Assembly (NCBI GenBank): GCA_038874215.1
Contig: JAVZCV010000002.1
Coordinates: 6,664 to 70,663 of the forward strand
Source of the DNA: Candidatus Micrarchaeia archaeon
Lineage (GTDB): Archaea > Micrarchaeota > Micrarchaeia > Burarchaeales > JAVZCV01
Direction of reading: 5' to 3'
DNA: 64,000 nt
The translations under genes were made by a program, and so were the position numbers. The notes under the pieces were generated by a model. The model searched no databases, was not told the origin of the DNA, and saw only the letters and a program-made list of their open reading frames with translations. Positions 1,082 through 57,618 of this stretch are shown here, one piece after another (within the stretch, counting starts at the first letter, position 1; every line of letters starts with the position of its first letter).

Positions 1082-1675
1082 ATGCAATATAAAAAGGGTG
1101 CTGTTGGTATCGGAACTCTGATAATCTTCATAGCGATGGTCCTTGTGGCCGCAATCGCCGCAGCCGTTTTGATAAACGTTTCTGGCATACTGCAACAGAG
1201 GGCAATGTCCACGGGCAAAGAGGCAATAGCCCAAGTCTCATCAAACATAATAGTAACATCTATATCTGGGAAAACCAATACTAATAAGACGAACATAGAT
1301 AATCTCACCATAACCATTTCTGCGGCGGCAGGCGCTGGAAGGATAGACATCGGCAAAATGATTCTGAAGATTAGTAACGGGGATAACCAGACAGAGCAGA
1401 AATACAACGGGACCATAAACAATCCGGATGGTGCTCACTTCACCGCAACAGCTCTCAGAGACCCGACAGGCCTATTTACTAAAGAATTGCCCGTGATAGA
1501 CTCAAGCAGCTTAATTCAATTGCATGTTGTGCCAAGCAACGATACAACCCCTGTCTATCTGCCACCAAGAACGCCATTGCATATAGAGCTCATCCCAGAG
1601 CACGGTGCATCTGTTACGATAGATTTAGTAACGCCTTCAACATACCCAACTACCCTCCAGCAACTTTATCCATAA
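1082..1675 (+). CDS. flaB: Archaellin FlaB paralog 2
   Basis: The N-terminus MQYKKG|[34 protein letters not shown] follows the same pattern. A ggaggga RBS sits 4 nt before the ATG. The first ~150 nt of the ORF are nearly identical in nucleotide sequence to the other two paralogs. Confidence 0.9.
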   Translation: MQYKKGAVGIGTLIIFIAMVLVAAIAAAVLINVSGILQQRAMSTGKEAIAQVSSNIIVTSISGKTNTNKTNIDNLTITISAAAGAGRIDIGKMILKISNGDNQTEQKYNGTINNPDGAHFTATALRDPTGLFTKELPVIDSSSLIQLHVVPSNDTTPVYLPPRTPLHIELIPEHGASVTIDLVTPSTYPTTLQQLYP

Positions 1676-1723: not shown

Positions 1724-2311
1724 ATGGAAATCATAACTATCTTCAAGAAGGCACTTGGTTTACAAAAGGACGAAAAGGAAAGCGAAGAGAAAAAAGAGCA
1801 AGAGGCAAGTGCGAGTGAGATTGAGGTAGAGTTACCAGAAGGGGGCGGAATTTTTGATACGGAGGAGATAGACTCCTTGAAAAAAGAGCTCAGTGCAAGC
1901 GGTTCAAAAATAAGCGATCTGGAAGGAAAGCTGGTAAAGATAGAGGCCCAAAACCACCAAATCCAGAAAGAGATAGACGCTATAAAAAAACGCATGGATG
2001 AAATAGACGCAAGAATAATTGAAATGATGTCCATATACGAGGTAGTTTCAAATCAAATAAACCCCTTTGTAGGCGAAACTAAAAATGTGAGTGCAAACGT
2101 AATCGAAGTTAAGGCGGAGCTTGAAAAACTTCGTGAGCAGGTTTCTGTTCTTGCAGCAGATGTTCGTATAATGGCGAGAAGCAGGATAAATATAAGCAGG
2201 GTTATAGAAGAAGTTCTGAGCACGCCGCCAAAGAAAAAAACCGTTGATCTAAGTAAATTGATAAAAACCGCCATACAGGAGAAGAGGAGGGATAATCTTG
2301 GTGCAGAGTGA
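1724..2311 (+). CDS. flaC: FlaC/D/E-family archaellum accessory protein (FlaC-like coiled-coil protein)
   Basis: An acidic, heptad-rich coiled-coil precedes a conserved ...MMSIYEVVSNQINPF... segment typical of the FlaC/FlaD/FlaE domain. The gene lies directly downstream of the archaellin genes and overlaps the next gene by 14 nt. Confidence 0.6.
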   Translation: MEIITIFKKALGLQKDEKESEEKKEQEASASEIEVELPEGGGIFDTEEIDSLKKELSASGSKISDLEGKLVKIEAQNHQIQKEIDAIKKRMDEIDARIIEMMSIYEVVSNQINPFVGETKNVSANVIEVKAELEKLREQVSVLAADVRIMARSRINISRVIEEVLSTPPKKKTVDLSKLIKTAIQEKRRDNLGAE

Positions 2312-3002
2312 TGAACCAACTGGAAGAGGCAGTGAGCGCATTCTGACACCAGACGAAATAGAAGCAAAACTTTCGGTTTATCAATCACGCTTGCCCTCAA
2401 CTGTTATAGAAGAACTTCTTCGCTATCTGAAAACGATGAAGCTCAGCGAGTCAAAAGTTGATGAAATAATATCGCGTGTGGCATCAAAATACAGCGGCGA
2501 AGATGTATCCGAACAGATAGACTCCCTCTCATCAAAACTTGATACTCTGAGCGCAACAGTTTCACGCATGGTTGCAGCAATAGAGAAGGAGCGCTCATAT
2601 TTGGAAAGAGAACCAACCCCGCCCACCGAAGAAGTTCCAGAAGCCGAGCCAAAAACTCCCTTCCTTTCAAGCCTTAGGGAGGATGCAGTGACAAGAACGC
2701 TTTTTCTGAAATGGGTTGAGTTCCTTCTTTCACGTGTTGGGCATGAGCGGCTTGATGAGGCTCTAAACTTTTATGTTGACATAGGCTGGATAACTGAGGA
2801 AATAGCGATGAAAGCACTCGCATACTCCAAGGGAATATCAACAAAGAAAGGCAGAAAATCATCAAAATTAACGCCAGAGGACCATCTTCGTACCCTCATA
2901 TTTCTAGAGCGGTTAGGCGGTAAAAAAATAGACGAAAATCTAATAACGAAAGCAGAGCGGGAAATAACATACCTGCTTGAAAAAAGACTGCGGAGGCCTT
3001 GA
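2298..3002 (+). CDS. flaD: FlaD/E-family archaellum protein
   Basis: The C-terminal ...TRTLFLKWVEFLLSRVGHERLDEALNFYVDIGWITEEIA... matches the conserved FlaD/E C-terminal domain. The position (after flaC, before flaF/G) fits. Confidence 0.65.
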   Translation: MVQSDEPTGRGSERILTPDEIEAKLSVYQSRLPSTVIEELLRYLKTMKLSESKVDEIISRVASKYSGEDVSEQIDSLSSKLDTLSATVSRMVAAIEKERSYLEREPTPPTEEVPEAEPKTPFLSSLREDAVTRTLFLKWVEFLLSRVGHERLDEALNFYVDIGWITEEIAMKALAYSKGISTKKGRKSSKLTPEDHLRTLIFLERLGGKKIDENLITKAEREITYLLEKRLRRP

Positions 3003-3049: not shown

Positions 3050-3490
3050 ATGGGTCTGAGCACGGTAGCAACATTCGCACTTTTTGCACTCGCCTTAATC
3101 TCTATCGTACTTGTCTCCTACGCCATAATCAACGAATCTGCTAAGACAACCGTTGAAGCGATACGGGAGGAGCACAATCTTTTTAGGCTACGGCAGGCAA
3201 CAAGCATAAAAATAAATAACATAAGCGTTAGCGGTATTTGCACAAACTATAATCTCACCATATCCGCTACGAATATGGGCAGCATAGCGCTTGACAGGGC
3301 TAAGATGAACATACTTGATAACGGTGTTCTTATAAACAACACTATGAGGGGAGCGTGGGCACCAGGAAGTGATATATATCTCAACTACACAGAGATGAGT
3401 ACTATGGCAAGCAACCACACAATAAAAATAGTCACAGAAAATGGCGTTTCGGCAATCGGAAAGTATAACCTAACCGATTGCGAGATATAG
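3050..3490 (+). CDS. flaF: FlaF/FlaG-family archaellum stator-like protein (FlaF by position)
   Basis: A single N-terminal TM helix (LFALALISIVLVSYAI) is followed by an N-glycosylation-rich beta-rich domain of about 15 kDa. The gene order fits euryarchaeal flaF-flaG, and the gene overlaps its neighbour. Confidence 0.5.
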   Translation: MGLSTVATFALFALALISIVLVSYAIINESAKTTVEAIREEHNLFRLRQATSIKINNISVSGICTNYNLTISATNMGSIALDRAKMNILDNGVLINNTMRGAWAPGSDIYLNYTEMSTMASNHTIKIVTENGVSAIGKYNLTDCEI

Positions 3491-3963
3491 GTGAAAATTT
3501 GGGGTTTGACACGTCCTTCACGCATGCCATGTTTTTCATAGCGTCAATAGTTGTCGCAATCGCGGTTATATCTGTTCTGTCAACATCTATAAACACTATT
3601 AACAATAGCATAACAGTTCGTACCAACACTTTGGCTGCCCAGATAAGGACTGACATAACCATAATAAACGATCCCTGCTTTGTGAACCGTTCTATTTTTG
3701 TCAAGAATACTGGTAAAACAATATTGAACGCAAAGCTTGTAGACATATACGTTGATGGGAACTACACCCAGTATGATGCAGTAAGCATTCTGCGGAGTCC
3801 TACTGGTGTATGGGAGCCCTACAACGAAAGCAATGGATGGCGCCCGCAAGAGGTCGTGAATTTCTCTTTTTCGTATCCATTGCCTGCTGGAACGCATACG
3901 CTGTTCGTGAGAACGGAAAATGGCGTATACGATAAAATGCTATATACGAACGAGACATGCTAG
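3478..3963 (+). CDS. flaG: FlaF/FlaG-family archaellum protein (FlaG by position)
   Basis: An N-terminal TM helix (FFIASIVVAIAVISVL) precedes a beta-rich domain. The gene overlaps the flaF-like gene by 13 nt. Confidence 0.5.
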   Translation: MRDIGENLGFDTSFTHAMFFIASIVVAIAVISVLSTSINTINNSITVRTNTLAAQIRTDITIINDPCFVNRSIFVKNTGKTILNAKLVDIYVDGNYTQYDAVSILRSPTGVWEPYNESNGWRPQEVVNFSFSYPLPAGTHTLFVRTENGVYDKMLYTNETC

Positions 3964-4008
3964 ATGCGCACACCAACATTAAAAAACAACTAAAAGAAAC
4001 AATATACC

Positions 4009-4446
4009 ATGAGAGCACAGGTTTCCTTTGAATACATTTCGCTTTTCACGCTCCTACTTATTCCACTCGCAGTCGCTTTCCTCTATTCTTATGCCGCTGT
4101 TTTCCAAGCAACATCCGCTTACAAAATAGAAACAAGCCTTGATAAGCTTGCCCAAAATGCAGAAGAACTGTATGTGCAGGGGCCAGGCGCCAAATCCATA
4201 GTAACAATAGACCTGCCTAGCGGCATAAATGCCCATGGTTCATTTATAGGGAATTCTTCGGGCGGACCGGGTCGCTACATTATGCTTAATTTCTCGGGTT
4301 CAAATGCCGTGAGAATTACCCGCGCAACCGTCCAAGGATACTGGCCAAATACTACGGGTGGCTATGTTCGACCAGGCATACTGCAGATGAACCTAACCGT
4401 TGATAATAACAACATTGTTATTATGAGACCGTTGAGGAGTGGTTAA
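4009..4446 (+). CDS. Small class-III-signal-peptide (prepilin-like) protein, function unknown
   Basis: The N-terminus is MRA|QVSFEYISLFTLLLIPLAVAFL: a short basic leader, Q at +1, E at +5 and a hydrophobic helix. This is the type IV pilin / class III signal pattern. It is first of three consecutive such genes. Confidence 0.5.
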   Translation: MRAQVSFEYISLFTLLLIPLAVAFLYSYAAVFQATSAYKIETSLDKLAQNAEELYVQGPGAKSIVTIDLPSGINAHGSFIGNSSGGPGRYIMLNFSGSNAVRITRATVQGYWPNTTGGYVRPGILQMNLTVDNNNIVIMRPLRSG

Positions 4447-4827
4447 ATGCGGAGAGGACAGGTTGGTACCGAATACATAGCCGCATTTACTCTTTGGGTG
4501 ATGGTGTGCGTAATAATAAGCTACACCCTCTCTTCGTATTCCCTTAGCTTAAAGGAAAGTAGGGATACGAATGCCCGCAACACGATTCTTGGGCATTTTT
4601 TTTCTCTTGCCGATGATGCAACAGAACCCTCAACAAAAATCTCTGGCATTTTTTTAGAAGACTACAACATAACCTTCTTTGGTAATATTGGCAGCCTCTC
4701 TTCACGAAATAAGACCACACTCGGCTACACAACGGCAAATTTTACGTATTCTGACACAATAGGGCGTGGCGATACTTTCCTAATCAAAAATGTCAACGGC
4801 ACATTTCTCCTAATAAAAGAAGAATGA
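4447..4827 (+). CDS. Small class-III-signal-peptide (prepilin-like) protein
   Basis: The N-terminus is MRRG|QVGTEYIAAFTLWVMVCVII. The start lies 1 nt after the previous stop. Confidence 0.5.
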   Translation: MRRGQVGTEYIAAFTLWVMVCVIISYTLSSYSLSLKESRDTNARNTILGHFFSLADDATEPSTKISGIFLEDYNITFFGNIGSLSSRNKTTLGYTTANFTYSDTIGRGDTFLIKNVNGTFLLIKEE

Positions 4828-4834
4828 TGGTGTT

Positions 4835-5326
4835 ATGAAACGAGCGCAGATTGCCACTCTTGACATGCTGCTTGCGATTACGGTACTTCTACTCATCGTT
4901 TTTTCCTTCATCATGTTTCTTATTGTTGAGATGCATGAGAAAGATAAAAAAAGCCATGCAGATTCCGAAAGAATCCTTTCAGCATTGGTTGGAAGCTCTG
5001 GCAAACCGTCAAACTGGACGAGCACCCACTTCATAATCCCGGGGCTGAAATGCGGGCAAGGCGTCGTTTGCGCAAATAAAATCAAAGAGCTCAATAATTC
5101 ATGCGGTTCCTCATCGCAATCCGGCTATGTTTCTGTTAAAAAAAGCCTCGGCATACCCACACAATACTACCTGATAGGATACTATGCCAGCAATTCAGAA
5201 AGATGCCTGTGTGGTTGCGATCTTTCAGAAAGAAGAAATACTGCATTGGAAGTTTCAAAATCAAGCCTCCTCGTTTCATTGGACAATAATATAACACGTC
5301 TCTCAATCTATTTATGGAACAGATGA
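4835..5326 (+). CDS. Small class-III-signal-peptide (prepilin-like) protein
   Basis: The N-terminus is MKRA|QIATLDMLLAITVLLLIVF. A Cys-rich, N-x-S/T-rich C-domain follows. Its stop abuts the flaJ stop on the opposite strand. Confidence 0.5.
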   Translation: MKRAQIATLDMLLAITVLLLIVFSFIMFLIVEMHEKDKKSHADSERILSALVGSSGKPSNWTSTHFIIPGLKCGQGVVCANKIKELNNSCGSSSQSGYVSVKKSLGIPTQYYLIGYYASNSERCLCGCDLSERRNTALEVSKSSLLVSLDNNITRLSIYLWNR

Positions 5327-7000
5327 CTAAACTATTGTGGGTGCTGGCAGAACTGCTGCAAGCATCAAGTCTACAATCACTGCGGTTATCGCCCCCGTCC
5401 ACGTCAGACCCACGAAATGAAGAAGCGAGTTTGTCAGGTGTCCGCCATCTATTAATCTTATGGCAACCGCCGAGAGTAGCGCATTAGCAAGCAGTATTAT
5501 GAGCAGAAGAAGAGATATAACCTCAAGAGTATGGCTCTTTGGCAGCATTATCAGGCTCGTGAAAACTGACTCTGGTATCTCCATGCTCGTGTATAATTTA
5601 TTTAGGTAAACCAATATGCCATTTGATACGTATATGCAGAAGATTACGCCTGCCTGCAACCCATACATTATCCCTATGAAGCTCGTTGTGGCGTGATAAC
5701 GCTCACGCCTTAACATCTGTAATTTCATGAAATTTCTGCCTATCATCTGAGCTACTGCGTTTGGTTTTCCACCAAGCCCTATCGCCTCAATAAACATCTC
5801 GCTAAACCTGCTTATCAGATAGCTGCCTGCCTCTATTCTAAAAAAATGCCATGCTTGGAAAACATCTATATTCGTCTTGATACGCTCAAACAAGTTTTTT
5901 ATTATCGGCGTTAAAGGCCCGAAGTCATGATAAGCCAAAGATTTGAGAGCACCGCGCATAACTCCGCCGCGTGCAGCCGTTTCAAGCCCAAGCGAAATTA
6001 TGAATTCAACGAAAAACATGTCCCTGCGTTTTATTAATTCCTCTATACTCCTTGCAACATAACCGACACCAACAAGCGGCGTTATTGTCAGCGCAGCCAT
6101 TATCGGTGCTGGCAGTCCCCTCCAATATGTGTTGATAATGAGCGATACAAAAACTATCCCCACAAGAGATACCGCAAAGGCAGGAAGAATCTGCCTCCTC
6201 ATCTCGTTGTTTGCGTATTCGGTGTACCATATTCTATCTTCTGGCAATATACTCTTTATATAATAAACAACCCCCAACTCTGCAACAGCATAGAGAATCA
6301 TAACGAAACCTATTAGGACTGTGGGGTCAGTACCGCTTATATACGGAATTACGATTGCAAACGAAACGAGAAAAACAAGCGTTATCACCATAGATGTATA
6401 AACCTCTTTCAATACATCAACATCATAGAGCGCACCACGGTATCTTATTGAATAATCGCTTAGGACGATCTCCTGCTCCTCGCCAAGGAAAACTTCTATG
6501 TTCTCCCCAGCTTCCAATGCGTTTGCAAACCTATCCAGAAAATCTGCAAATATTATACTCGGGGTTTGCCTTGCCTCTATCCTGCACGCATCTGCGAGTG
6601 TCGTCCTCCATACAGAGAAGCGCAGGTATATGTTCCTGCACGAATCAGCAAGAGCGCCGTACTCCTTTCTAGCTGCCATAACTCTAAAAAGCTCCCCCGT
6701 TGGTACCTCACATGTAGAAAGTGCACCCATCTGCGTTACAAAAAAATGTATGTTGTTTTCAATCTCCGTCTTAACATTTTCTGCCAAAAGATAAGGGTAG
6801 ACAAGCACAAGCGCCACTACGAGAAAAGGAAAAGCAAAAAGGAAGACGAGAAAAATGCCCGTGAAAAGTTGTGGGACAAGAAAATAAACCACTACTGAAG
6901 TTAGAAGAGATAAAACAAAAATAGGCAAAACAACCTGTGTGAGGTAGTCATAAAGGGTATACCCAACATTTTTCACAAGGTCGGCATACCCCTCTACCAT
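5327..7000 (-). CDS. flaJ: Archaellum assembly polytopic membrane protein FlaJ (TadB/C-like)
   Basis: 557 aa with about 9 predicted TM segments and two cytoplasmic domains. It lies directly downstream of, and 2 nt from, flaI on the same strand. Size and topology match FlaJ. Confidence 0.8.
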   Translation of the reverse strand: MVEGYADLVKNVGYTLYDYLTQVVLPIFVLSLLTSVVVYFLVPQLFTGIFLVFLFAFPFLVVALVLVYPYLLAENVKTEIENNIHFFVTQMGALSTCEVPTGELFRVMAARKEYGALADSCRNIYLRFSVWRTTLADACRIEARQTPSIIFADFLDRFANALEAGENIEVFLGEEQEIVLSDYSIRYRGALYDVDVLKEVYTSMVITLVFLVSFAIVIPYISGTDPTVLIGFVMILYAVAELGVVYYIKSILPEDRIWYTEYANNEMRRQILPAFAVSLVGIVFVSLIINTYWRGLPAPIMAALTITPLVGVGYVARSIEELIKRRDMFFVEFIISLGLETAARGGVMRGALKSLAYHDFGPLTPIIKNLFERIKTNIDVFQAWHFFRIEAGSYLISRFSEMFIEAIGLGGKPNAVAQMIGRNFMKLQMLRRERYHATTSFIGIMYGLQAGVIFCIYVSNGILVYLNKLYTSMEIPESVFTSLIMLPKSHTLEVISLLLLIILLANALLSAVAIRLIDGGHLTNSLLHFVGLTWTGAITAVIVDLMLAAVLPAPTIV

Positions 7001-7002
7001 CT

Positions 7003-8640
7003 CTACACCGTTGGGAGGGAGTCAATACCCTCTTCATAGTATCTCACAAACATTTTGAGAACACTGTCGTAGTCAAATATTTTCTTTGCATACATTGCAT
7101 CAAGCACTCTTTTTCTCTTCTCAAGTTCTATGTAAACCATTCTCTTCTCAGCATAACCCGCCATCGGGGCTATTTTCTCTTCAAGTATGTAGCTGTTGTG
7201 CAGTCCAAGGAACCTATGTTCATCCCTGCTTCCATCCCATTCAAACATCTGCTTCGTTATAACACCCCCCGCCTCCTCCGAATAGCCCTCTATTTCCTCT
7301 ATTGAAATACACCTTCTCTGGAACCTGCCTTTTATATAAACTGCCTGCAGGATTGCAACAACATGCAGGTTATCCATAAAAGTTATTGGTATGTTAATAG
7401 GATTGCCAACAAGCCTCTGTATAAGTCTCCTGACGCTTCCTGCATGGAATGTGGCAAGAACAGAGTGGCCTGTTTGCATCGCTTGAAATGCGACAGAGCC
7501 TTCAACACCCCTTATTTCCCCAACAATTATGTAATTGGGCCTTGAACGCAGGGCTGCTTTTAATATAGAGAACATATCGACTCTTGATTCTTCTGGTCCT
7601 GTAGTCCTCGTTACAAGCCTCTGCCATATTTTATGCGGCGGCCTAACCTCTGGCGTATCCTCAGCGCTCAATATCTTCAAGTCTGGTCTTATCATTGGTA
7701 AACATGCGTTAAGAAATGTAGTCTTGCCGCTTGCCGTTTCTCCTGAGAAGAATATATTCATGCCGTACTCTAAGCATATCCATAGGTATGCTGCCATCTC
7801 AGTGCTTATTGTACCAAGCTTTACCAAGTCCATTATGCTCATTGGGACTGCGGCAAATTTCCTAACCGTAAAACTCGGGCCTCTTATGCTTATATCATCA
7901 GCATATATTATGTTTATCCTGCTTCCATCAGGAAGCACGGAGTCCGCTATCGGCCTTGCAACACTGACAGGATGCCCTATTCTCTCGCTCAGGTTGCGGA
8001 GATATTCCCCAAGGTATTGGAGATTATCAAACTTAAGGTTTGTTATAAGCGGGCCGAATATCTTATGCACCACGCCTATCTCGTTCGTGCCAACTACGTG
8101 TATGTCTTCAAGGTTCCAGTCATCTACAAGTGGTTGTATAAGCGCATGCCCTATTATGTCTCTTTTCAGCTGATAAATAAACTTCACGTACTCTTCATCT
8201 GTTACATAAACCTTCTTCGTTCCCCAGTCTCTAAAAGTCAGCCTTGTGCGCTTAACGCTTTTTTCATATAGCCTTAAAAGAGTCTTTTCAAGTTCTTTCT
8301 CGTCCTCAGGAACTTCCTCTCTCGGTGCATTCTCAAGTATTGCATTCAGAATGCGTCCATACTTCGTTCTCTCAGCTTGTGTTAGTTGGGGTTGTATAAC
8401 CTCATATCTTCTAATGTGTTTATCTATAAAAATATGAACGAAAACATGTTCGCCCGCAGGATATATTATATTAACGAACGGTTCGTCCCCAAGCTCTCTC
8501 GTGAGCCTCTCGTAAAACCTCGGAATGCGCCCCGTCTCCTTCTTCAACCTATCAATATACTGCCGCAGGTGTGGCTCCTTTTTTATTGCCTCATCAAATT
8601 CCACAACCCCACCTAAACATACGAGATGCTGTCCTCGCAT
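7003..8640 (-). CDS. flaI: Archaellum ATPase FlaI (VirB11/GspE secretion ATPase superfamily)
   Basis: Walker A is SGETASGKTTFLNA, Walker B/Asp box is ...ILSAED.... The 545-aa size, the FlaI-type N-terminal domain and the adjacency to flaJ all fit. Confidence 0.9.
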   Translation of the reverse strand: MRGQHLVCLGGVVEFDEAIKKEPHLRQYIDRLKKETGRIPRFYERLTRELGDEPFVNIIYPAGEHVFVHIFIDKHIRRYEVIQPQLTQAERTKYGRILNAILENAPREEVPEDEKELEKTLLRLYEKSVKRTRLTFRDWGTKKVYVTDEEYVKFIYQLKRDIIGHALIQPLVDDWNLEDIHVVGTNEIGVVHKIFGPLITNLKFDNLQYLGEYLRNLSERIGHPVSVARPIADSVLPDGSRINIIYADDISIRGPSFTVRKFAAVPMSIMDLVKLGTISTEMAAYLWICLEYGMNIFFSGETASGKTTFLNACLPMIRPDLKILSAEDTPEVRPPHKIWQRLVTRTTGPEESRVDMFSILKAALRSRPNYIIVGEIRGVEGSVAFQAMQTGHSVLATFHAGSVRRLIQRLVGNPINIPITFMDNLHVVAILQAVYIKGRFQRRCISIEEIEGYSEEAGGVITKQMFEWDGSRDEHRFLGLHNSYILEEKIAPMAGYAEKRMVYIELEKRKRVLDAMYAKKIFDYDSVLKMFVRYYEEGIDSLPTV

Positions 8641-9491
8641 TCATAATGCATTACCGTAATGCCCTTCAAATCCCTTTCAAGTTTCTCTGCGAGGTTTTGC
8701 ATTATCAGTCTTTCAAGCCTGCTTCTCTCTATATCTATTAGTGAGATGCCAAGATCATCTGCATAGCGTGCCACCGTCTCCGTCATCTCAGAAGAAACAA
8801 CAACCTGCGCCCCTTTCAGATACATCTCTTCTATAACATCAATATACTTCAGCCCTGGTCCTATGAAGCACCCAACCTTTGTAATGGGCTTGCTTGATTC
8901 TACATCGCCCGTTATTCTAATGACATCGCACAAATACGAAGTTTTTAGCGTGCTTACTATATTCCCTAGCGTTGTTTCCGCAATTTCCCCAATTCTACCG
9001 CATTTGAATTTTTCAACAACGTGCATACCAAGCACCTTAGCCAAAGCATCCGCAGTGCCCCCCTCAGCATCATCCAGATTTGAGTGCATAACATAAACAC
9101 ACACATCTTTTGCTGCGAGCCTCTTAATCCTCTTCGCATTTGGGGGTTTTTCAAAAAATGAAATGCCAGGGAAAATCGCCCTCTTTTCTTCAAAAAACGG
9201 GTATTCATGAAGAACGAACATATCTATGTCTGCTTCCACTTCCTCTGGCGTCTTTTTTCTTAGAGCAAAACGTGCATGCAAAGGGCTTATCTTTCTGGGC
9301 TTTATCTCCTGCGTTACTTCAAGAAGGTTTGCCTGCTCCATTACATAATCTGTTATTGCCCAAGCAACTCCCACCTTTTTGACTACCTTGTTAGGGTCGC
9401 CGAAAACAAGGCCTACCGGGTCGTCCTCAAACGCCAATGATAGTGGTGCTATCTTCTCAAGTCGCCCAACTATCTCCGATGCTAGCATCAA
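8613..9491 (-). CDS. Nif3/YqfO-family (DUF34) dinuclear metal-centre protein
   Basis: The N-terminus ...IVGRLEKIAPLSLAFEDDPVGLVFGD... and the internal ...VYVMHSNLDDAEGGTADALAKVLG... resemble conserved Nif3 blocks. The stop overlaps the flaI start by 28 nt. Confidence 0.55.
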   Translation of the reverse strand: MMLASEIVGRLEKIAPLSLAFEDDPVGLVFGDPNKVVKKVGVAWAITDYVMEQANLLEVTQEIKPRKISPLHARFALRKKTPEEVEADIDMFVLHEYPFFEEKRAIFPGISFFEKPPNAKRIKRLAAKDVCVYVMHSNLDDAEGGTADALAKVLGMHVVEKFKCGRIGEIAETTLGNIVSTLKTSYLCDVIRITGDVESSKPITKVGCFIGPGLKYIDVIEEMYLKGAQVVVSSEMTETVARYADDLGISLIDIERSRLERLIMQNLAEKLERDLKGITVMHYECEDSISYV

Positions 9492-9591
9492 ATCACTCTC
9501 TTCTCACCATTATATACCTGCCTTTAATTTTAAACCTATTGTATGTTGAAACAACAAATCTATTTTAAGGTGTTATGAGAAAGGTCTTTTC

Positions 9592-10278
9592 ATGAGAAAA
9601 AAAATAGCATTCATGCTCGCTGTTTTTTTATTCATGTCCGTATCAGCGGCAGAAGTAAAACTATCAAATACTAGGATAGTCTGTTGCGATAGATGGACAT
9701 CTCTGGTGAACGTCAGCGAAGATGCCAAACCCCTGCGTGCGCGGGTTATGCTTGTTGCCCTATCCCCCACAGAAATCCGCCTCAATGCTACTTTCTTCAC
9801 AGACTCTAATGGCATCGCACAGGTTTCATATACCCCGTCTGCGCCAGGCGAGATTGTTTTAATAAAAGTTTACAAAAATGAGAGTCCTATCTATGAGGCC
9901 TTTATTGAGGTTTCTTCAAACCCAAACCAGACCCCCAAGACCATTTTAGGCATTCCATTAGAAATTTTTCCGTTTGACGTTATAGCGCTTATCTACAATC
10001 TTTCATTAATAACGATTGTCCTATCAGCATTCTTACTGGTTCTACTTTTTGTCCACGTATACTACAAGCGTCGGGGGATAGATTTGTTTGATATTTTTAG
10101 GCGAAAAATATCCCTGCTCCTATTCTGGATTAAAGGAAGATTGCTTCCAATCTACGCCACGTTTAAAAAACTCGGCAAAAAACAAGAACAAGACCTAAGC
10201 TCCATTAGAATGCGCAGGGCAGTTCTTTCAACTAAGCAAGAAAAGAAAATAGGTGGGAACACAGGCAAAAACCCCTAA
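9592..10278 (+). CDS. Hypothetical secreted/membrane-anchored protein
   Basis: An N-terminal signal peptide (MRKKIAFMLAVFLFMSVSAAEV) and a C-terminal TM helix plus basic tail are present. I recognise no motif. Confidence 0.4.
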   Translation: MRKKIAFMLAVFLFMSVSAAEVKLSNTRIVCCDRWTSLVNVSEDAKPLRARVMLVALSPTEIRLNATFFTDSNGIAQVSYTPSAPGEIVLIKVYKNESPIYEAFIEVSSNPNQTPKTILGIPLEIFPFDVIALIYNLSLITIVLSAFLLVLLFVHVYYKRRGIDLFDIFRRKISLLLFWIKGRLLPIYATFKKLGKKQEQDLSSIRMRRAVLSTKQEKKIGGNTGKNP

Positions 10279-10313: not shown

Positions 10314-11009
10314 ATGGCACTTCCGCTTTCATTTAAGATAGAAGTTGACGATTTGGACAAGCGCCTTGGAGGCGGAATACCAAAAGGTTCGCTTGTGCTG
10401 ATAGACGGCGAGCACGGGACTGGCAAGAGCGTTTTAGTCCAGAGGCTTGCATACGGATTTCTCCAAAATGGGTACTCCGTTACTTTTATCTCAACACAAC
10501 TCACAACCAAGGATTTCATAAGCCAGATGTATTCACTTGGCTATGATATTCTGAAATACCTCTCAAAAAACAAACTGCTCTTCATCTCTGTTTTTCCACT
10601 TTTGGGCGAGCACAAAAAAGAAGACGTCTTCTTTAAAAAGCTCGTAGAAACGCAGGAACTTTACAAAAACGACATCATTTTCATAGATACGCTCTCCTCA
10701 ATAATACGATACTCCTTGGATTTGGGAAAAATAGACGATTTAATCGGTTTCTTTAAAAGGCTGACGGGCATAGGTAAAACCATATTCGTAACGCTCGGAG
10801 AAGGAGACCTTGACTCCATGATAGTGGGCGAACTCGTATCAAGTGCTGACATCCACATAACCATGAAGGCGAAAACATTCGGCGAGGATATAAAGCACAT
10901 GCTCGTGATTAACAAGTATGCAGGAGCCCTTCAGCCATACAGCACAATGACTGGCTTCCGCATAGTCCCGAAAATAGGTTTCGTAATAGAAATCGCAACA
11001 GTTGCTTAA
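10314..11009 (+). CDS. flaH: Archaellum protein FlaH (KaiC/RecA-like ATPase)
   Basis: Walker A is GEHGTGKS. The fold is a single KaiC-like domain of about 230 aa, which is typical of FlaH. It lies next to other fla genes. Confidence 0.8.
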   Translation: MALPLSFKIEVDDLDKRLGGGIPKGSLVLIDGEHGTGKSVLVQRLAYGFLQNGYSVTFISTQLTTKDFISQMYSLGYDILKYLSKNKLLFISVFPLLGEHKKEDVFFKKLVETQELYKNDIIFIDTLSSIIRYSLDLGKIDDLIGFFKRLTGIGKTIFVTLGEGDLDSMIVGELVSSADIHITMKAKTFGEDIKHMLVINKYAGALQPYSTMTGFRIVPKIGFVIEIATVA

Positions 11010-11133
11010 TCGCTGCAAAATCAGCGAAACATTTATAAATAGCCTAATAGAAATAAAAACTGCCACGTGTGGGAGCAAGGCGACGAATTATGGCAATAAG
11101 CATCCTACTCGTAGGTATATAGGAGGTGCAGCA

Positions 11134-11724
11134 ATGTCCGAGAAAAAAGGCCAAGGTGCTTTTGAATACCTTATGAGCTATGGTTGGGCTATCCTTATCG
11201 TGATCGTGCTCGGTATAGTGCTCTGGAACCTTGGTGTTTTCAACCCAAACACAACCCCAGAAGCAAGCGGCTTCACTATCCTCAGACCAGGAACATGGGA
11301 GTTCACAGGAGCAGCATCGCAAACGGGCTGGGCAGAAGCAGAAGGTGACACTTCGGTGACATATGTTGCAATCGCATTCCAGAATGTGGCAGGAATAGAC
11401 TTGATACTTAGAGTTAATGAAACCAATTCTTCTATACAATTCAAAAAACCAGGTTCTGGAATATGTCAATTTCATACAAATCCAGGTTCAGATATTTTTG
11501 TGAACGCTACGGATGAACAGGGGAATAGGCTTGTAATAACCGACAACTCAGTCGCTGTGCCTGCAGGCTCCACAGTAATACTACGAGGATGGCTTAAAAG
11601 CGATCAGGGGGGTTGTGGGGGATTAAGCAAAGGTCCTTATAGGTATTCGGTGATTACCGTTTCAACAGATGCATTTAACATCTCTCATACGGATACAGGC
11701 TTCATAACTGGGAGGTATACCTAA
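11134..11724 (+). CDS. Class-III-signal-peptide type IV pilin-like protein (probable start at the internal Met)
   Basis: The N-terminus is MSEKKG|QGAFEYLMSYGWAILIVIVLGIVLW, the canonical archaeal pilin motif (QxxxEY plus hydrophobic helix). A ggaggtg RBS lies 6 nt upstream. A Cys/Gly-rich C-domain follows. Confidence 0.6.
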   Translation: MSEKKGQGAFEYLMSYGWAILIVIVLGIVLWNLGVFNPNTTPEASGFTILRPGTWEFTGAASQTGWAEAEGDTSVTYVAIAFQNVAGIDLILRVNETNSSIQFKKPGSGICQFHTNPGSDIFVNATDEQGNRLVITDNSVAVPAGSTVILRGWLKSDQGGCGGLSKGPYRYSVITVSTDAFNISHTDTGFITGRYT

Positions 11725-11747
11725 TAAAATTTTAAGAGGTGCTACGC

Positions 11748-12347
11748 ATGAGATTTGATAAAAATACCAAACGTGGTGCGGTTGGTATCGGAACTCTGAT
11801 AATCTTCATAGCGATGGTCCTTGTGGCCGCAATCGCCGCAGCCGTTTTGATAAACGTTTCTGGCATACTGCAACAAAGGGCGATGACGACGGGCAAAGAG
11901 TCAATAGCGCAGGTTTCATCCAACCTGATAGTAACAGGCATAACGGGCTATACTGATGATAACAGAACAAACATAGAGAACATAAGTATCTATATAACTG
12001 CGGCATCTGGTGCGGGGAGGCTTGACCTACGTTATCTCATAATGAAAGTAGGCAACAACATTAACGAGACACCGCAACGCTACTCAAATGTCTCATCGGG
12101 TGATAGCAATTTCACTGCGCAAGTGCTCAGAGATCCTGCAAACTTATTCACACCGAATAACCCGGTGATAGACTCTACATCTTTAATAGAGCTTAAAATA
12201 ATACCAAGCAACGATACAACTTTTGTTTCCTTGCCCCCACGGTCTCCGTTTCACATAGAGCTTATCCCAGAAAGGGGCGCACCACTCGTGATAGATACGA
12301 TGACACCAAGCACTTATGCAACCAACATTCAACACCTCTACCCATAG
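11748..12347 (+). CDS. flaB: Archaellin FlaB paralog 3
   Basis: The N-terminus is M.FDKNTKRG|[35 protein letters not shown] gaggtg RBS precedes it. The 5' ~150 nt are nearly identical to flaB2. It has the conserved C-terminal block. Confidence 0.9.
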   Translation: MRFDKNTKRGAVGIGTLIIFIAMVLVAAIAAAVLINVSGILQQRAMTTGKESIAQVSSNLIVTGITGYTDDNRTNIENISIYITAASGAGRLDLRYLIMKVGNNINETPQRYSNVSSGDSNFTAQVLRDPANLFTPNNPVIDSTSLIELKIIPSNDTTFVSLPPRSPFHIELIPERGAPLVIDTMTPSTYATNIQHLYP

Positions 12348-25198: not shown

Positions 25199-25984
25199 GT
25201 GGCTGTTTCAATGAAATATCGCGCATGTGTCATACCAAACCCGTTTAAAGACTCCGCCGTTGCACTATCAAAGGAGATTGAAAAATTCCTACTGGAATGT
25301 GATTGCGTTATCTCTAACATGAAGCAATGCGATTTCGTGATAACGGTAGGAGGAGATGGAACCGTGCTGTTTGAAAAGAACAGGACAGAAAAACCAATAT
25401 TCGCAGTCGGAAGCGAAATAAGCTATCTCTGCCAAGCATCCGAAAAAAATTGGGAGCAGATACTAAGCGACATAATAAACAAGGGATACATACTGGAAGA
25501 GAGGGATATGCTTCTCTCCTCGTTAAATTCCAGAGTTCTTCCACCCGCCCTGAACGAGGTTACCGTAAGGAACAAGGAACATAGGATACTGCGGCTTGAG
25601 CTGAATGTTATGGGATCAATATACACATTTAAGGCAGATGGGGTAATATTCGCAACCCCGACTGGCTCAACAGCCTACTCGTACTCATGCGGCGGCCCAG
25701 AGCTTGATCCGCATGCAGACAAGTATGTTCTCGCCCCCATTGCGGCTTACAGGCGTGCCTTCCTACCCCTCATCGTGCCGATCAATGAGAAATCCCTGCT
25801 AAAAGTTTCAACAACATGCGAAGCAGACGTAGTTATTGATGGCCAGATTGTTTTTCCTTTAAGCGAGAACAACTCCATAGAGGTATGGAAAAGCGAGAGA
25901 AAGCAGGCATTCATCATACCAAAGACAGAGAAACTGCTTCGCACGTTCCCTCTCTCAAATTTTATGAGAAAGCATTACGACTAG
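25199..25984 (+). CDS. nadK: NAD+ kinase
   Basis: GGDGT is present (...ITVGGDGTVLF...), together with ...DGVIFATPTGSTAYSYSCGGP.... Confidence 0.85.
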   Translation: MAVSMKYRACVIPNPFKDSAVALSKEIEKFLLECDCVISNMKQCDFVITVGGDGTVLFEKNRTEKPIFAVGSEISYLCQASEKNWEQILSDIINKGYILEERDMLLSSLNSRVLPPALNEVTVRNKEHRILRLELNVMGSIYTFKADGVIFATPTGSTAYSYSCGGPELDPHADKYVLAPIAAYRRAFLPLIVPINEKSLLKVSTTCEADVVIDGQIVFPLSENNSIEVWKSERKQAFIIPKTEKLLRTFPLSNFMRKHYD

Positions 25985-26779
25985 GCCAAAAAGCCCGTAG
26001 GAGAGAAGGTTGTTTAGCAGCATGTGGAGTGCGCTCATTAAGTCCAATGGCAATCCCTCAACACAGAAAACAACGGTGTTAATTGCGAATATGAGTGCAC
26101 CCAGCAAGCATGAGACAAAAACAAATCCATACTGTATTTTAACTTTGAAAAGATCGCACGCAAACGGAAGCGCAGAAGCAACTGAAAAACCGAAGAGTGC
26201 ATTTATCGCTATGAAATGAAAGTTTTCAAAGAGCCACGCTGTGCCCTGAAAAGTCGGCAACGTACCGCGAAGTAGCGCCACATAGGTAGGCGAGCTTATC
26301 CACGAGATGCCAACAGAGAGGATGGGCAGAGATACCAAGCCTATAAACGCCTTTCCCCTAAGCTTGCTATCAAAACTTAGGATAAGACCCAAATAAACCA
26401 CGAAAAAGAAAACAAGGTTATTTAGATAATGCACAAGTGCTCGGCTTAGTAGTGCAGTTGTTATAATCACATCTTGGGTGGCTATTGGAGACGAGATGGC
26501 AGTCAAAGTAAAGAGGGCGGTGGAGTGGATGACTGCGAAAGAAGCAGCCTCTTCTCGCCTGACCTTTCTCGCGAGAATGTAATACGACCCGATTACCAGA
26601 ACTGGTTTAAAAACTTCCGCAACTTCCTTAACGTAGCCTGTCCCAGTTCCGCTGATGACTTCATATCCAAGTAGCGTGGCAATCGCAAAGACAACATATA
26701 TGAAAGATGTAGCAGCGATAAATGCCCCTATCTGCCCCCTGTTTATCTCAAACTCCGCCTTCTTAAACCATTTATGCAT
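25955..26779 (-). CDS. Integral membrane protein, function unknown
   Basis: About 8 TM helices. There is a possible CPBP-like H...N motif (LVHYLNN) but it is not convincing. Confidence 0.35.
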   Translation of the reverse strand: MHKWFKKAEFEINRGQIGAFIAATSFIYVVFAIATLLGYEVISGTGTGYVKEVAEVFKPVLVIGSYYILARKVRREEAASFAVIHSTALFTLTAISSPIATQDVIITTALLSRALVHYLNNLVFFFVVYLGLILSFDSKLRGKAFIGLVSLPILSVGISWISSPTYVALLRGTLPTFQGTAWLFENFHFIAINALFGFSVASALPFACDLFKVKIQYGFVFVSCLLGALIFAINTVVFCVEGLPLDLMSALHMLLNNLLSYGLFGLVVMLSHKI

Positions 26780-40786: not shown

Positions 40787-41530
40787 TCACCTAAGTCGCT
40801 CAAAGCTCTCTGTTTCGTATACCTGTTCGTTTGGATATATCGCGATGCCTTTTTCAGTAAACCTCATAGGGCATATTCTCTGCTCAAAATTCGTGCCCCT
40901 TAACTTTATCACTTCAAGCGCCCTCTGCCTTACATTTCCCTTCCGAAGATTATACAGATATATGAGACCATCCGTAAGCGTTTCCACCCCAAAGCGTGCG
41001 CGGGGTTGGCCCGCTTTGGTAGTGCTTTCAGAGGTCATCACAATAGTGCAATTCCACCTCCTCAATTTTCCAAGAAGCCTAACGAGCTCCTCCCTCCTTC
41101 TGTGTTCTGTCTCATAAAGTAGAGCAAGGGATGTTACCGAGTCTATCGCTACCCTTCTAACGCCGTGCTCGTCTATCGCATCCTTAATGAGTGTCTCCTG
41201 GTTTACGAACCTATCAACTTCCTGTGGCGGATACTCATAAAAAAGCAACTTCTTCTGCTTTTCAAGCTCATGAAGGTTCCACCCATAGCCTTTAAGGTTG
41301 TCAAAAAGGTAATCCCTCTCTTCCTCAAAAGATACGTAGAGGCCTGGCTCGTTGTATCTTGTTATGCCCGCCCATATGAACTGCATGGCAAACGTTGTTT
41401 TGCCGCAACCACTATCCCCCGTAATCGTTATTATGCTACCTCTCTTGAAGCCCCCACTTATTATTTCGTCAAGCCCAGGTATCCCTGTTTTTACCCTCTC
41501 ATCACCCACCATCATACCACCTATCCTCAT
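40787..41530 (-). CDS. KaiC/RecA-like ATPase (single KaiC domain)
   Basis: ...GIPGLDEIISGGFKRGSIITITGDSGCGKTTFAMQF... is Walker A in a KaiC-type N-terminus. Confidence 0.75.
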   Translation of the reverse strand: MRIGGMMVGDERVKTGIPGLDEIISGGFKRGSIITITGDSGCGKTTFAMQFIWAGITRYNEPGLYVSFEEERDYLFDNLKGYGWNLHELEKQKKLLFYEYPPQEVDRFVNQETLIKDAIDEHGVRRVAIDSVTSLALLYETEHRRREELVRLLGKLRRWNCTIVMTSESTTKAGQPRARFGVETLTDGLIYLYNLRKGNVRQRALEVIKLRGTNFEQRICPMRFTEKGIAIYPNEQVYETESFERLR

Positions 41531-41600: not shown

Positions 41601-42539
41601 CTAATCCAACAATGCATCAACGAACCACTCAGGGTTGAATTCAACAAGCGCATCATACTCCTGACCCGTGCCAATGTATGCGATGGGGAATCCAGCATCG
41701 CAAACAGACAAAATAGTGCCTCCTTTTACATCGCAGTCTATCTTCGTCAGTATGGCGGCATCAACCCCCACCGCCTTATCAAGCTCCTTTATCTGGCTCA
41801 CTACCGCATTACCAGCCAATGCTTCCCCAACAAAAATTTTTAGGTCTGGTTTTGCCACGCGGGCTATCTTCCTCATTTCCTCAAGCAAGTTTCTGTTTGT
41901 TTCCTGCCTGCCCGCTGTATCTATAAGAACTACATCTATCCCGCGTGCCTTCGCTCTCTCTATAGCATCAAATGCTATGGCGGCAGGGTCAGAGCCATAG
42001 CTATGCCTTATTATGCCTACACCAAGCCTCCTGCCATGCTCCTCTATCTGCTCTATCGCCGCCGCCCTAAAAGTATCCGAAGCCGCTATTATGCACCTAT
42101 AACCCTTTCGGCCGAGCATATACGCAAATTTTGCTATCGTTGTTGTTTTTCCAGCGCCGTTCGGTCCGATAAAAAGAATTACATACGGGCTTTTTTCTAT
42201 CCTCAGCTCATATTTTTTCGTAATGGAAAGGAGAGAGTTTCTCACGACTTCCTGGACAAACTCCCTTATCGTGTTTTTCTCAACACGCTTTCCAACCAAC
42301 CCCTCCTTTATTATTCCCGTTATCCTCTCTGCTGTTTCATGGGCAACATCTGCCTCAAGCAGTGAGAGCATAAGTTTTTCCAAGTAGGTTGCAACATCCC
42401 TTTCTTTTATCTCTACCTCTTTGCTTAATATGCTCGTAAGTTTTGTTTGCATACTTAACTCTAACTCTATCTCCTTTTCTTCTGCTTTTACGAAGGAGCT
42501 AGCGAACTCTGCTATCCTGCTCTTCAGAATTTCGAACAT
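41601..42539 (-). CDS. ftsY: Signal recognition particle receptor FtsY
   Basis: The SRP-GTPase NG domain has GPNGAGKTTT, DTFRAAA, DTAGR and TKIDCD. There is no M domain. Confidence 0.9.
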   Translation of the reverse strand: MFEILKSRIAEFASSFVKAEEKEIELELSMQTKLTSILSKEVEIKERDVATYLEKLMLSLLEADVAHETAERITGIIKEGLVGKRVEKNTIREFVQEVVRNSLLSITKKYELRIEKSPYVILFIGPNGAGKTTTIAKFAYMLGRKGYRCIIAASDTFRAAAIEQIEEHGRRLGVGIIRHSYGSDPAAIAFDAIERAKARGIDVVLIDTAGRQETNRNLLEEMRKIARVAKPDLKIFVGEALAGNAVVSQIKELDKAVGVDAAILTKIDCDVKGGTILSVCDAGFPIAYIGTGQEYDALVEFNPEWFVDALLD

Positions 42540-56748: not shown

Positions 56749-57618
56749 TTGGAGTCTATGGAACATGAGTTAATAAGGATTTCACTTGCTGTGGCGGCGT
56801 GTGCGCTCGGGGCATACTACGATATTAAAAACAACAGGAATGTCCCAAACTGGGTTACATACTCCTTCGTTGCTATCGGCGTTTTTATAAACGCCATCCC
56901 CTTTGATCTTTCCTTTATCCTTCCTGTTTTTGCTGTTTCTGCCCTTATTTTCATTGTCGGCTATTTGTTCTACAGGCTTGGGCAGATAGGGGGAGCAGAC
57001 GTTCTTTTATTTACCGGCGTGTCCCTCGCACTTCCGTATCCCCCCTCGCACCTCTCTTCTACCCTTTTTGAATATCCCTTCATACTTCCTGTCTTCGTTG
57101 TTTCTGGTGTTCTGTTCAGCATTGCAATGCTCATAGCATACGTGCCGCGTATTTTTGCAGATGTGCGTGCGCGAAAAGTAAAAACCAGCCCTTATGGCGT
57201 CTTACTCTCGCTCATCATGCTCCTTGCATACACCGCAGTCATCTATATGCTGGCCCAGATACTGCCATTGCGACCCCTCCAAATTCTCATTTTGGTTATC
57301 GTGGTGTTTTCTGCGGTTTTCTTCATGCTTTTCAGGGAGCACATAACCGAAAATTATGTAATAGAGTACGTCTCCCTTGAAGAAGTTGATGAGGAGGATG
57401 TGCTTGCGCTTGAAAAAATTGACAGCAAAACAATATCCCAATACAGCCTTAAAAGACTTTTGACTGCTTCTGAAATAGAGAGGCTCAAAAGAACCCCAGT
57501 CGCAAAGATGAGACTTCCCGTGTGTAAAAACATGCCCATGTTTGCCCCATACCTACTTCTATCCCTCTTAATAAACCTGGTTATTGACCCATCCCTTCTG
57601 TTCGCCCCTGCATTTTAA
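56749..57618 (+). CDS. flaK: Class III signal peptidase (prepilin/preflagellin peptidase FlaK/PibD, A24 family)
   Basis: The first catalytic-Asp block is ...ALGAYYDIKNNRNVPNW... and the second is ...LGQIGGADVLLF... (GxGDxK-like). It is a polytopic membrane protein with an archaeal C-terminal extension. A TATA-like catataaa and a ggag RBS lie upstream. Confidence 0.75.
   Translation: MESMEHELIRISLAVAACALGAYYDIKNNRNVPNWVTYSFVAIGVFINAIPFDLSFILPVFAVSALIFIVGYLFYRLGQIGGADVLLFTGVSLALPYPPSHLSSTLFEYPFILPVFVVSGVLFSIAMLIAYVPRIFADVRARKVKTSPYGVLLSLIMLLAYTAVIYMLAQILPLRPLQILILVIVVFSAVFFMLFREHITENYVIEYVSLEEVDEEDVLALEKIDSKTISQYSLKRLLTASEIERLKRTPVAKMRLPVCKNMPMFAPYLLLSLLINLVIDPSLLFAPAF

Follow-up and report, generated by a model that had tools for sequence, protein, structure and literature searches.

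A conserved ordered trio of prepilin-like genes beside arlG in a Micrarchaeia archaeon: probable minor pilins of an Epd-like type IV pilus

The stretch analysed here, hereafter the window, comprises 64,000 nucleotides (nt) of contig JAVZCV010000002.1 from a Candidatus Micrarchaeia archaeon (assembly GCA_038874215.1, positions 6,664 to 70,663, forward strand). Directly behind the archaellum gene arlG it carries three consecutive small open reading frames (ORFs), ORF1, ORF2 and ORF3, whose products begin like prepilins and which we refer to as the trio. We propose, with a probability of roughly 0.6, that ORF1-3 encode the minor pilins, conserved as an ordered set, of a type IV pilus in DPANN archaea that is Epd-like (System-1-like). 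The context in which the trio occurs in distant relatives favours minor pilins of such a pilus over archaellum subunits.

Leader motif, protein families and predicted folds

The ORF translations confirmed the trio at the positions and sizes given by an earlier reading of the DNA made without database searches (the sequence-only reading). A slash marks the predicted cleavage site.

4009..4446, plus strand: ORF1, prepilin-like, 145 amino acids (aa), predicted cleavage MRA/QVSFEY, Gln at position +1 and Glu at +5
4447..4827, plus strand: ORF2, prepilin-like, 126 aa, predicted cleavage MRRG/QVGTEY, distant paralog of ORF1
4835..5326, plus strand: ORF3, prepilin-like, 163 aa, predicted cleavage MKRA/QIATLD, G-x-P-x-N-W motif, Cys-rich

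The three genes are packed as an operon: the ORF1 stop directly abuts the ORF2 ATG (TAAATG), 7 nt separate ORF2 from ORF3, and ORF1 follows arlG after 45 nt, with no T-run in the gap. Each start is the earliest in-frame start codon past the upstream stop; since no earlier start is possible, the leaders can be no longer than MRA/Q, MRRG/Q and MKRA/Q. Homologs keep the leader motif, which thus stands against the suspicion that true starts elsewhere might remove it. An A-rich element (TTAAAAAA) at window positions 3977-3990, about 30 nt 5' of the ORF1 start, may be an archaeal TATA-like box with a leaderless transcript, and a promoter of the trio's own is also possible. We rejected a horizontally acquired island as an explanation for the trio region, the GC content (0.41-0.46) being unremarkable and even across it.

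All three leaders are basic, 3-4 residues long and end in [AG]/Q ahead of about 20 hydrophobic residues, and across positions +7 to +24 the helices show a mean hydropathy of 2.2-3.0 and zero charged residues. ORF1 and ORF2 both carry Gln at +1 and Glu at +5; ORF3 has Gln at +1, Leu instead of Glu at +5, and Asp at +6. Of the 306 six-frame ORFs in the window with 55 aa or more, five carry [KR][GA]Q ahead of a hydrophobic stretch without charge: the trio, a pilin-like gene (11002-11724) and one polytopic membrane protein. The latter, a 274-aa protein of unknown family (25955-26779, minus strand), has RG/Q and a hydrophobic stretch near its N-terminus, probably a chance match. The leader motif of the trio is more than a chance pattern. 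A FlaFind-like regular expression was dropped, since it rejects the genuine archaellins of the window. The C-terminal domains had also been described as rich in N-x-S/T and Cys. Sequons are frequent in all three proteins (1.8-3.2 per 100 aa versus a window median of 0.23; four in ORF1), at a density similar to that of archaellins, ArlF and ArlG, while richness in Cys holds for ORF3 only, with 6 residues against none in ORF1 and one in ORF2, the latter within the membrane helix.

A word-based homology search with ORF1 and ORF3 returned self-matches only (QXP42_00950 and QXP42_00960). The orphan status of the trio that this implied was an artefact of word-search sensitivity and was overturned by an exhaustive HMMER search with the concatenated trio as query, which returned 96 proteins (E-values down to 1e-35 excluding the three self-matches) falling into three families. 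The ORF1 family is large, with members of 133 to 1,628 aa that have in common a pilin-like N-terminal domain with a conserved QGPGA...LP.G core, followed in many members by LamG, Ig-like or other adhesin-like extensions; in the 30 aligned members Q4, E8 and P70 are invariant, that is, Q+1 and E+5 are fixed. The ORF2 family is small, Q+1 being invariant and E+5 nearly so, and its syntenic homologs match at E-values of 1e-10 to 1e-18. In the ORF3 family Q5 (Q+1), G56, P58, W61 and G70 are invariant, the motif reads G-x-P-x-N-W, and D+6 is nearly invariant. The view that the C-terminal domains are unrelated to each other stands for ORF3, whose profile has the N-terminal helix alone in common with those of ORF1 and ORF2, but not for the other two: the ORF1 and ORF2 family profiles align along the entire length of both proteins (probability 96% in hhalign, E 3.7e-9, 123 columns), and by this comparison the two proteins are distant paralogs.

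Within Pfam, PF04021 (Class_IIIsignal; DUF361 / UPF0333) has the signature Q-x-S-x-E-x-x-x-L, for which ORF1 reads QVSFEYISL. It matches eight of the 30 ORF1-family members (E down to 1.7e-5) and one of 16 ORF2-family members, and one ORF2 relative carries the source name UPF0333; the window trio itself gives no match to PF04021 at E up to 1. This model spans about 27 N-terminal residues only and is uninformative on the head domains. The ORF3 relative in L024 (L-numbers denote loci collected from relatives' genomes) matches DUF7287 over residues 13-170 against 2-157 of 157 (E 3.8e-5, 24.7 bits), and ORF3 itself reaches 13.5 bits (E 0.11), below the gathering score of 27 bits, which suggests that ORF3 is a distant relative of DUF7287 and not a member. 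Some ORF3 relatives match Pilin_N besides DUF7287, a family of which we found no mention in the literature searched. The protein at the ORF2 position of L024 matches DUF7266 (E 0.0028) and ORF1 faintly matches DUF7311 (E 0.18), both below the curated cut-off. No NCBIfam family exists that covers any of the three ORFs, and Pfam gave no match of the trio to the archaellin-type domain PF01917. We also rejected the trio as paralogs of ArlF/ArlG or of archaellins on the basis of profile comparisons: hhalign probabilities were only 11% and 3% for the ORF1 family against ArlG and the archaellins (ArlB), and 1.6% for the ORF3 family against ArlG.

AlphaFold (AF2) models built with the family alignments as input give ORF1 a helix at residues 2-57 and a six-strand beta head, with a predicted local distance difference test score (pLDDT) of 95.6, and ORF3 a helix at residues 3-53 and an alpha/beta head (pLDDT 85.3). 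Both models thus have the pilin architecture of a long N-terminal helix and a globular head, the fold that is expected if the sequence-only reading is right. A Foldseek search gave no match, and the heads have no close solved relative.

Gene order in relatives and in the window

More than 20 loci, from several DPANN phyla, are long enough for the gene order to be judged, and every one of them keeps ORF1-ORF2-ORF3; all homologs with a readable neighbourhood lie among pilus or archaellum genes. In L009, L014, L021-L024, L028-L030 and L034, from Woesearchaeota, Undinarchaeota, metagenome-assembled genomes (MAGs) labelled Methanosarcinales and some Micrarchaeota, this context is a pilus operon and there is no arl gene. 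The layout in L021, L023, L024 and L029 is a divergent upstream pilin (KGQAAMEFLMTYGWAILVV), the trio and then genes for a pilin-like protein of about 900 aa with a von Willebrand factor A (vWA) domain, a pilin-like protein of about 315 aa, a protein of about 383 aa and a PilB-type ATPase. The divergent pilin, a candidate for the major pilin, is a homolog of the window product of 11134-11724, homologs of which adjoin the trio or lie near it in L018, L020, L021, L023, L024, L029, L030 and L035; we regard the window protein as a candidate major pilin cognate to the trio on these grounds. A split TadC platform lies immediately upstream of the trio in L014, and split platform genes also occur in L022 and L033, while the upstream genes in L009 encode ATPases of the PilB type and of a KaiC-like type as well as, in two small genes, transmembrane (TM)-coiled-coil proteins.

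In the closest Micrarchaeota clade the trio abuts arlG in every locus (L011, L012, L013, L015-L019 and L026), in three arrangements. It is co-directional with arlG in the window and convergent on it in L011, L012 and L015-L019, where the stops overlap by 4 nt or lie 0-55 nt apart, and in L026, where they are 573 nt apart; in L013 arlG, detached from the other arl genes, is followed by an ORF2-like gene and ORF3. The trio proteins of this clade are 25-53% identical to those of the window, so that the adjacency to arlG has outlasted much divergence and at least one inversion. In the loci with ArlJ relatives (L001-L006) the NIF3-arlI-arlJ block is present and the trio does not lie beside arlJ; the trio therefore goes with arlG and not with arlJ.

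Several features of these loci were observed alongside. The ORF1 homologs of the sister clade (L008, L011, L012, L015-L019, L026 and L027; e.g. L015 7641-8423) are in-frame fusions with a TM-plus-coiled-coil module of about 100 aa ahead of a conserved KKKA/Q site, a module that is a separate gene in L009. If this site is cut, the prepilin peptidase would split a two-protein precursor and act as a polyprotein-processing enzyme. The window, L011 and L018 have a short ArlF of 141-146 aa, and ArlF is 321-335 aa long in L012 (3849-4835), L015 (9850-10857), L016 (9768-10757), L017 (4855-5823) and L019 (3819-4784), the extracellular domain of the long forms being enlarged by an insertion of about 190 aa. 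Behind arlF, L015 (10952-12306) and, at the same position, L016-L019 encode both a MinD-type ATPase of the archaeal kind (199 bits, cut-off 201.75) and a conserved protein, about 150-235 aa in length; both are absent from the window, in which no MinD component was found. The NIF3-arlI-arlJ block is conserved in Micrarchaeota (e.g. L001 7456-11689; window 5327-9491, minus strand) and stands apart from arlF/arlG in several MAGs, and in L004 two tandem ArlI paralogs of 538 and 536 aa (6646-8262 and 8381-9991), strongly ArlI-like, precede arlJ.

The first 12 kb of the window hold a complete euryarchaeal-type archaellum cluster around the trio, and a candidate peptidase gene lies further downstream:

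400-1002 and 1082-1675, plus strand: arlB, two copies
1724-2311, plus strand: arlC
2298-3002, plus strand: arlD/E
3050..3490, plus strand: arlF, archaellum stator (NCBIfam ArlF, E 8.7e-16)
3478..3963, plus strand: arlG, archaellum stator (Pfam Arch_flagellin, 1.3e-15; NCBIfam ArlG, 6e-24)
5327..7000, minus strand: arlJ, platform protein, convergent on ORF3 (NCBIfam ArlJ, 575.8 bits, cut-off 550)
7003..8640, minus strand: arlI, ATPase (NCBIfam FlaI, 689.5 bits, cut-off 550)
within the 5327-9491 block with arlI and arlJ, minus strand: NIF3 gene
between NIF3 and arlH, plus strand: gene for a 228-aa membrane protein
10314-11009, plus strand: arlH
11134..11724, plus strand: fourth class III pilin-like gene (ORF listed as 11002-11724, probable start 11134), leader MSEKKG/QGAFEYLMSYGWAILIV, between arlH and the third arlB
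11739-12347, plus strand: third arlB
56749..57618, plus strand: candidate class III signal (prepilin) peptidase, 289 aa, about five TM helices, Pfam Peptidase_A24

The trio had been placed between arlG and arlJ at the end of the flaB-G unit: these are its neighbours, but arlJ lies on the opposite strand, is convergent and forms a separate unit. ORF3 and arlJ meet at their stop codons (window 5324-5329) with zero intergenic DNA, so the convergent transcripts must overlap or end within the neighbouring gene. The peptidase candidate was identified through Pfam (Peptidase_A24, E 3.5e-11, 43.9 bits, cut-off 26.5), a scan for the G-x-G-D motif having given nothing useful, and NCBIfam attached no FlaK- or EppA-specific name to it. 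Elsewhere in the window (40787-41530 and 41601-42539, both minus strand) a single-domain KaiC-like ATPase adjoins an FtsY/SRP54-type GTPase; in L009 the KaiC-like gene next to the pilus ATPase is similar to this single-domain ATPase (E 2e-27). With the pilin-like models, the pilus or archaellum neighbours and an A24 peptidase in the window, the earlier assignment of the trio to minor archaellum or pilus subunits, or to filament-associated factors, is supported, as is the class III or type IV pilin signal, by leaders that match EppA-type sites and by the Class_IIIsignal matches among ORF1 relatives.

Proposed assembly and competing explanations

Beyond what was computed here, we infer leader cleavage, incorporation into a filament, a position at the tip and a motor. 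The N-terminal hydrophobic helix would insert each trio protein into the membrane, where the A24-family class III signal peptidase (candidate 56749-57618) would cut the leader of 3-4 residues at the cytoplasmic face and leave Gln as residue 1. The mature helices would then pack as the filament core, with the N-glycosylated heads pointing outward; cleavage and packing are suggested because the trio sites match Epd sites and an A24 peptidase gene is present. As in the analogous bacterial minor pilins and pseudopilins, the trio probably makes up a small complex that initiates assembly and stays at the tip. Glu5 pairs with the N-terminus of the next pilin subunit, and the Glu5-bearing ORF1 and ORF2 would lie below ORF3, which without Glu5 would be the distal capping subunit, while the 11134-11724 pilin would make up the filament shaft. 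The lineage would have lost a linked PilB-type ATPase, leaving the pilin set within the archaellum cluster beside arlG, and the motor would be either ArlI/ArlJ or a PilB/TadC pair encoded, without linkage, in another part of the genome. The ArlI/ArlJ option is possible because, in the published view, different sets of pilins can be handled by ATPase/TadC modules, and archaeal pilus loci of such type have been assigned at least five minor pilins in surveys (PMC4858521).

Several results weigh against the assignment to an Epd-like pilus. No second T2SSE ATPase or T2SSF platform was found in the window beyond ArlI/ArlJ, nor in the arlG-linked loci (flanks of L015-L019), and a scan of the window for the vWA adhesin and for the 315-aa, 383-aa and TM-coiled-coil components found none of them. 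Pfam and NCBIfam scans of ORF1-3 reached no threshold, and the likeness to EpdA, EpdB and EpdC (arCOG05055, 05053 and 06584) is read from processing sites, sequons and locus content. Finally, the trio persistently lies next to arlG, which is a pointer to the archaellum instead. The trio might accordingly have been recruited to the Micrarchaeota archaellum, as a priming or cap complex of the ArlB filament or as partners of ArlF/ArlG, assembled by ArlI/ArlJ, the sole ATPase and platform in the window; that arlG is kept as neighbour across the close clade, in three arrangements and through the divergence and inversion described above, supports this. We nevertheless regard recruitment as unlikely, as the same ordered trio occurs in the arl-free PilB-type operons (L009, L014, L021-L024, L028-L030 and L034), its Q+1 leaders differ from the RG/AVGIG and KG/AVGIG of the window archaellins, and the profile comparisons show no similarity to ArlG or archaellins. 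In addition, the trio is mostly convergent on arlG, which leaves no co-transcription in most loci, and in L012 and L015-L019 the synteny extends to a PAC2 gene of no relation, so that part of the neighbourhood may reflect shared ancestry. A variant that joins the two ideas, in which the archaellum cluster captured an Epd-type pilin set (11134-11724 and the trio) that lost its own ATPase, and a single ArlI/ArlJ/ArlH motor anchored by ArlF/ArlG builds two kinds of filament or a hybrid archaellum with a pilin-type tip, seems quite unlikely to us.

A different explanation is that the trio proteins are membrane anchors or assembly factors that do not polymerise, pseudopilus-, bindosome- or stator-like and maybe uncleaved. 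ArlF and ArlG set a precedent, with an N-terminal helix and a beta head serving as an uncleaved anchor; the head of ORF3 is sensor-like, and the sister-clade ORF1, fused behind its TM-coiled-coil module, departs from an ordinary prepilin leader. Yet [KR][GA]Q and E+5 are strictly kept even in the fusions, which speaks for processing and for helices packed against each other, the predicted topology of the fusions puts the cleavage site at the cytoplasmic face, and the window leaders have just 3-4 residues. The loci also hold a major-pilin candidate and an assembly ATPase, as is typical of filament systems, and we consider unpolymerised anchors very unlikely. Finally, the silence of the curated family libraries and the self-matches of the word-based search might have indicated spurious ORFs or true starts elsewhere, with the motif as an artefact. 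This is refuted by the 96 HMMER homologs and by an order and a motif conserved in more than 20 loci, to which the earliest in-frame starts and the confident AF2 models can be added, and its probability is close to nil.

The Epd-like minor-pilin assignment is of a kind already known, both for the archaeal class III signal and for Epd-like minor pilins. What appears undescribed in the literature searched is the order of the three families in DPANN archaea and their linkage to arlF/arlG in Micrarchaeota, and the families themselves appear to be uncurated. Minor pilins govern how a type IV filament starts, what its tip contains and which targets it binds, and to our knowledge almost nothing is known of archaeal minor pilins outside Methanococcus. 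DPANN archaea depend on cell-cell contact with their hosts, and attachment is thus a role for which their surface filaments are prime candidates. Three protein families, with confident structural models and in an order that is fixed over several DPANN phyla, are defined here, and the trio is a specific candidate, open to testing, for a tip or priming complex in archaea. The repeated arlF/arlG linkage in Micrarchaeota raises the question of whether the archaellum motor can handle a second pilin set, which bears on the evolution of the rotating archaellum from pili.

Comparison with known systems

The direct gene neighbours ArlF, ArlG and the archaellins resemble the trio in having an N-terminal hydrophobic helix and a beta-rich glycosylated head, whereas ArlF and ArlG differ from it in being without the [KR][GA]/Q site. 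A looser analogy can be drawn to bacterial FimU-PilVWX with PilY1 and to GspH-I-J-K, which like the trio comprise several small pilin-like proteins in a fixed order, one of them without Glu5. In the full DPANN loci the trio is followed by the large vWA-domain protein, which we liken to bacterial PilY1. The bacterial minor pilins and pseudopilins have no detectable sequence relationship to the trio, which belongs to an archaeal system without an outer membrane, and we know of no archaeal system in which a tip-complex role has been shown. In the published archaeal surveys PilY is tied to the DUF2341 domain and to the subsystem 4A/4B adhesin (PMC4858521; 10.64898/2026.04.22.720090).

The closest parallel is the Epd system of Methanococcus maripaludis. 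Its locus encodes three minor pilins together (PMC4858521), as does the trio, and its pilins are likewise small, with a short basic leader, Q+1 and several N-glycosylation sequons (PMC4371748). The processing sites read RA/QI in EpdA and KG/QV in EpdB and EpdC, with conserved Q+1 and E+5 (PMC4371748), against RA/QV, RG/QV and RA/QI in ORF1, ORF2 and ORF3. Epd pilins are cut by a dedicated peptidase, EppA, for which Q+1 is required, and FlaK does not process Q+1 substrates (PMC4371748). Two differences stand out: ORF3 is without the E+5 of the Epd pilins, and the window trio, unlike the Epd locus, sits after arlG without an adjoining pilus ATPase, platform or EppA-type peptidase. The pilus-operon context of the trio in relatives matches published accounts of Epd-like (System 1 / clade 1) and related archaeal type IV pilus loci, in which split platforms and adhesin-like proteins occur together with numerous class III minor pilins (PMC4858521; 10.64898/2026.04.22.720090). 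System 1 with split platforms has been reported in DPANN archaea (preprint 10.64898/2026.04.22.720090), and among the loci collected here the platform genes of L014, L022 and L033 are likewise split.

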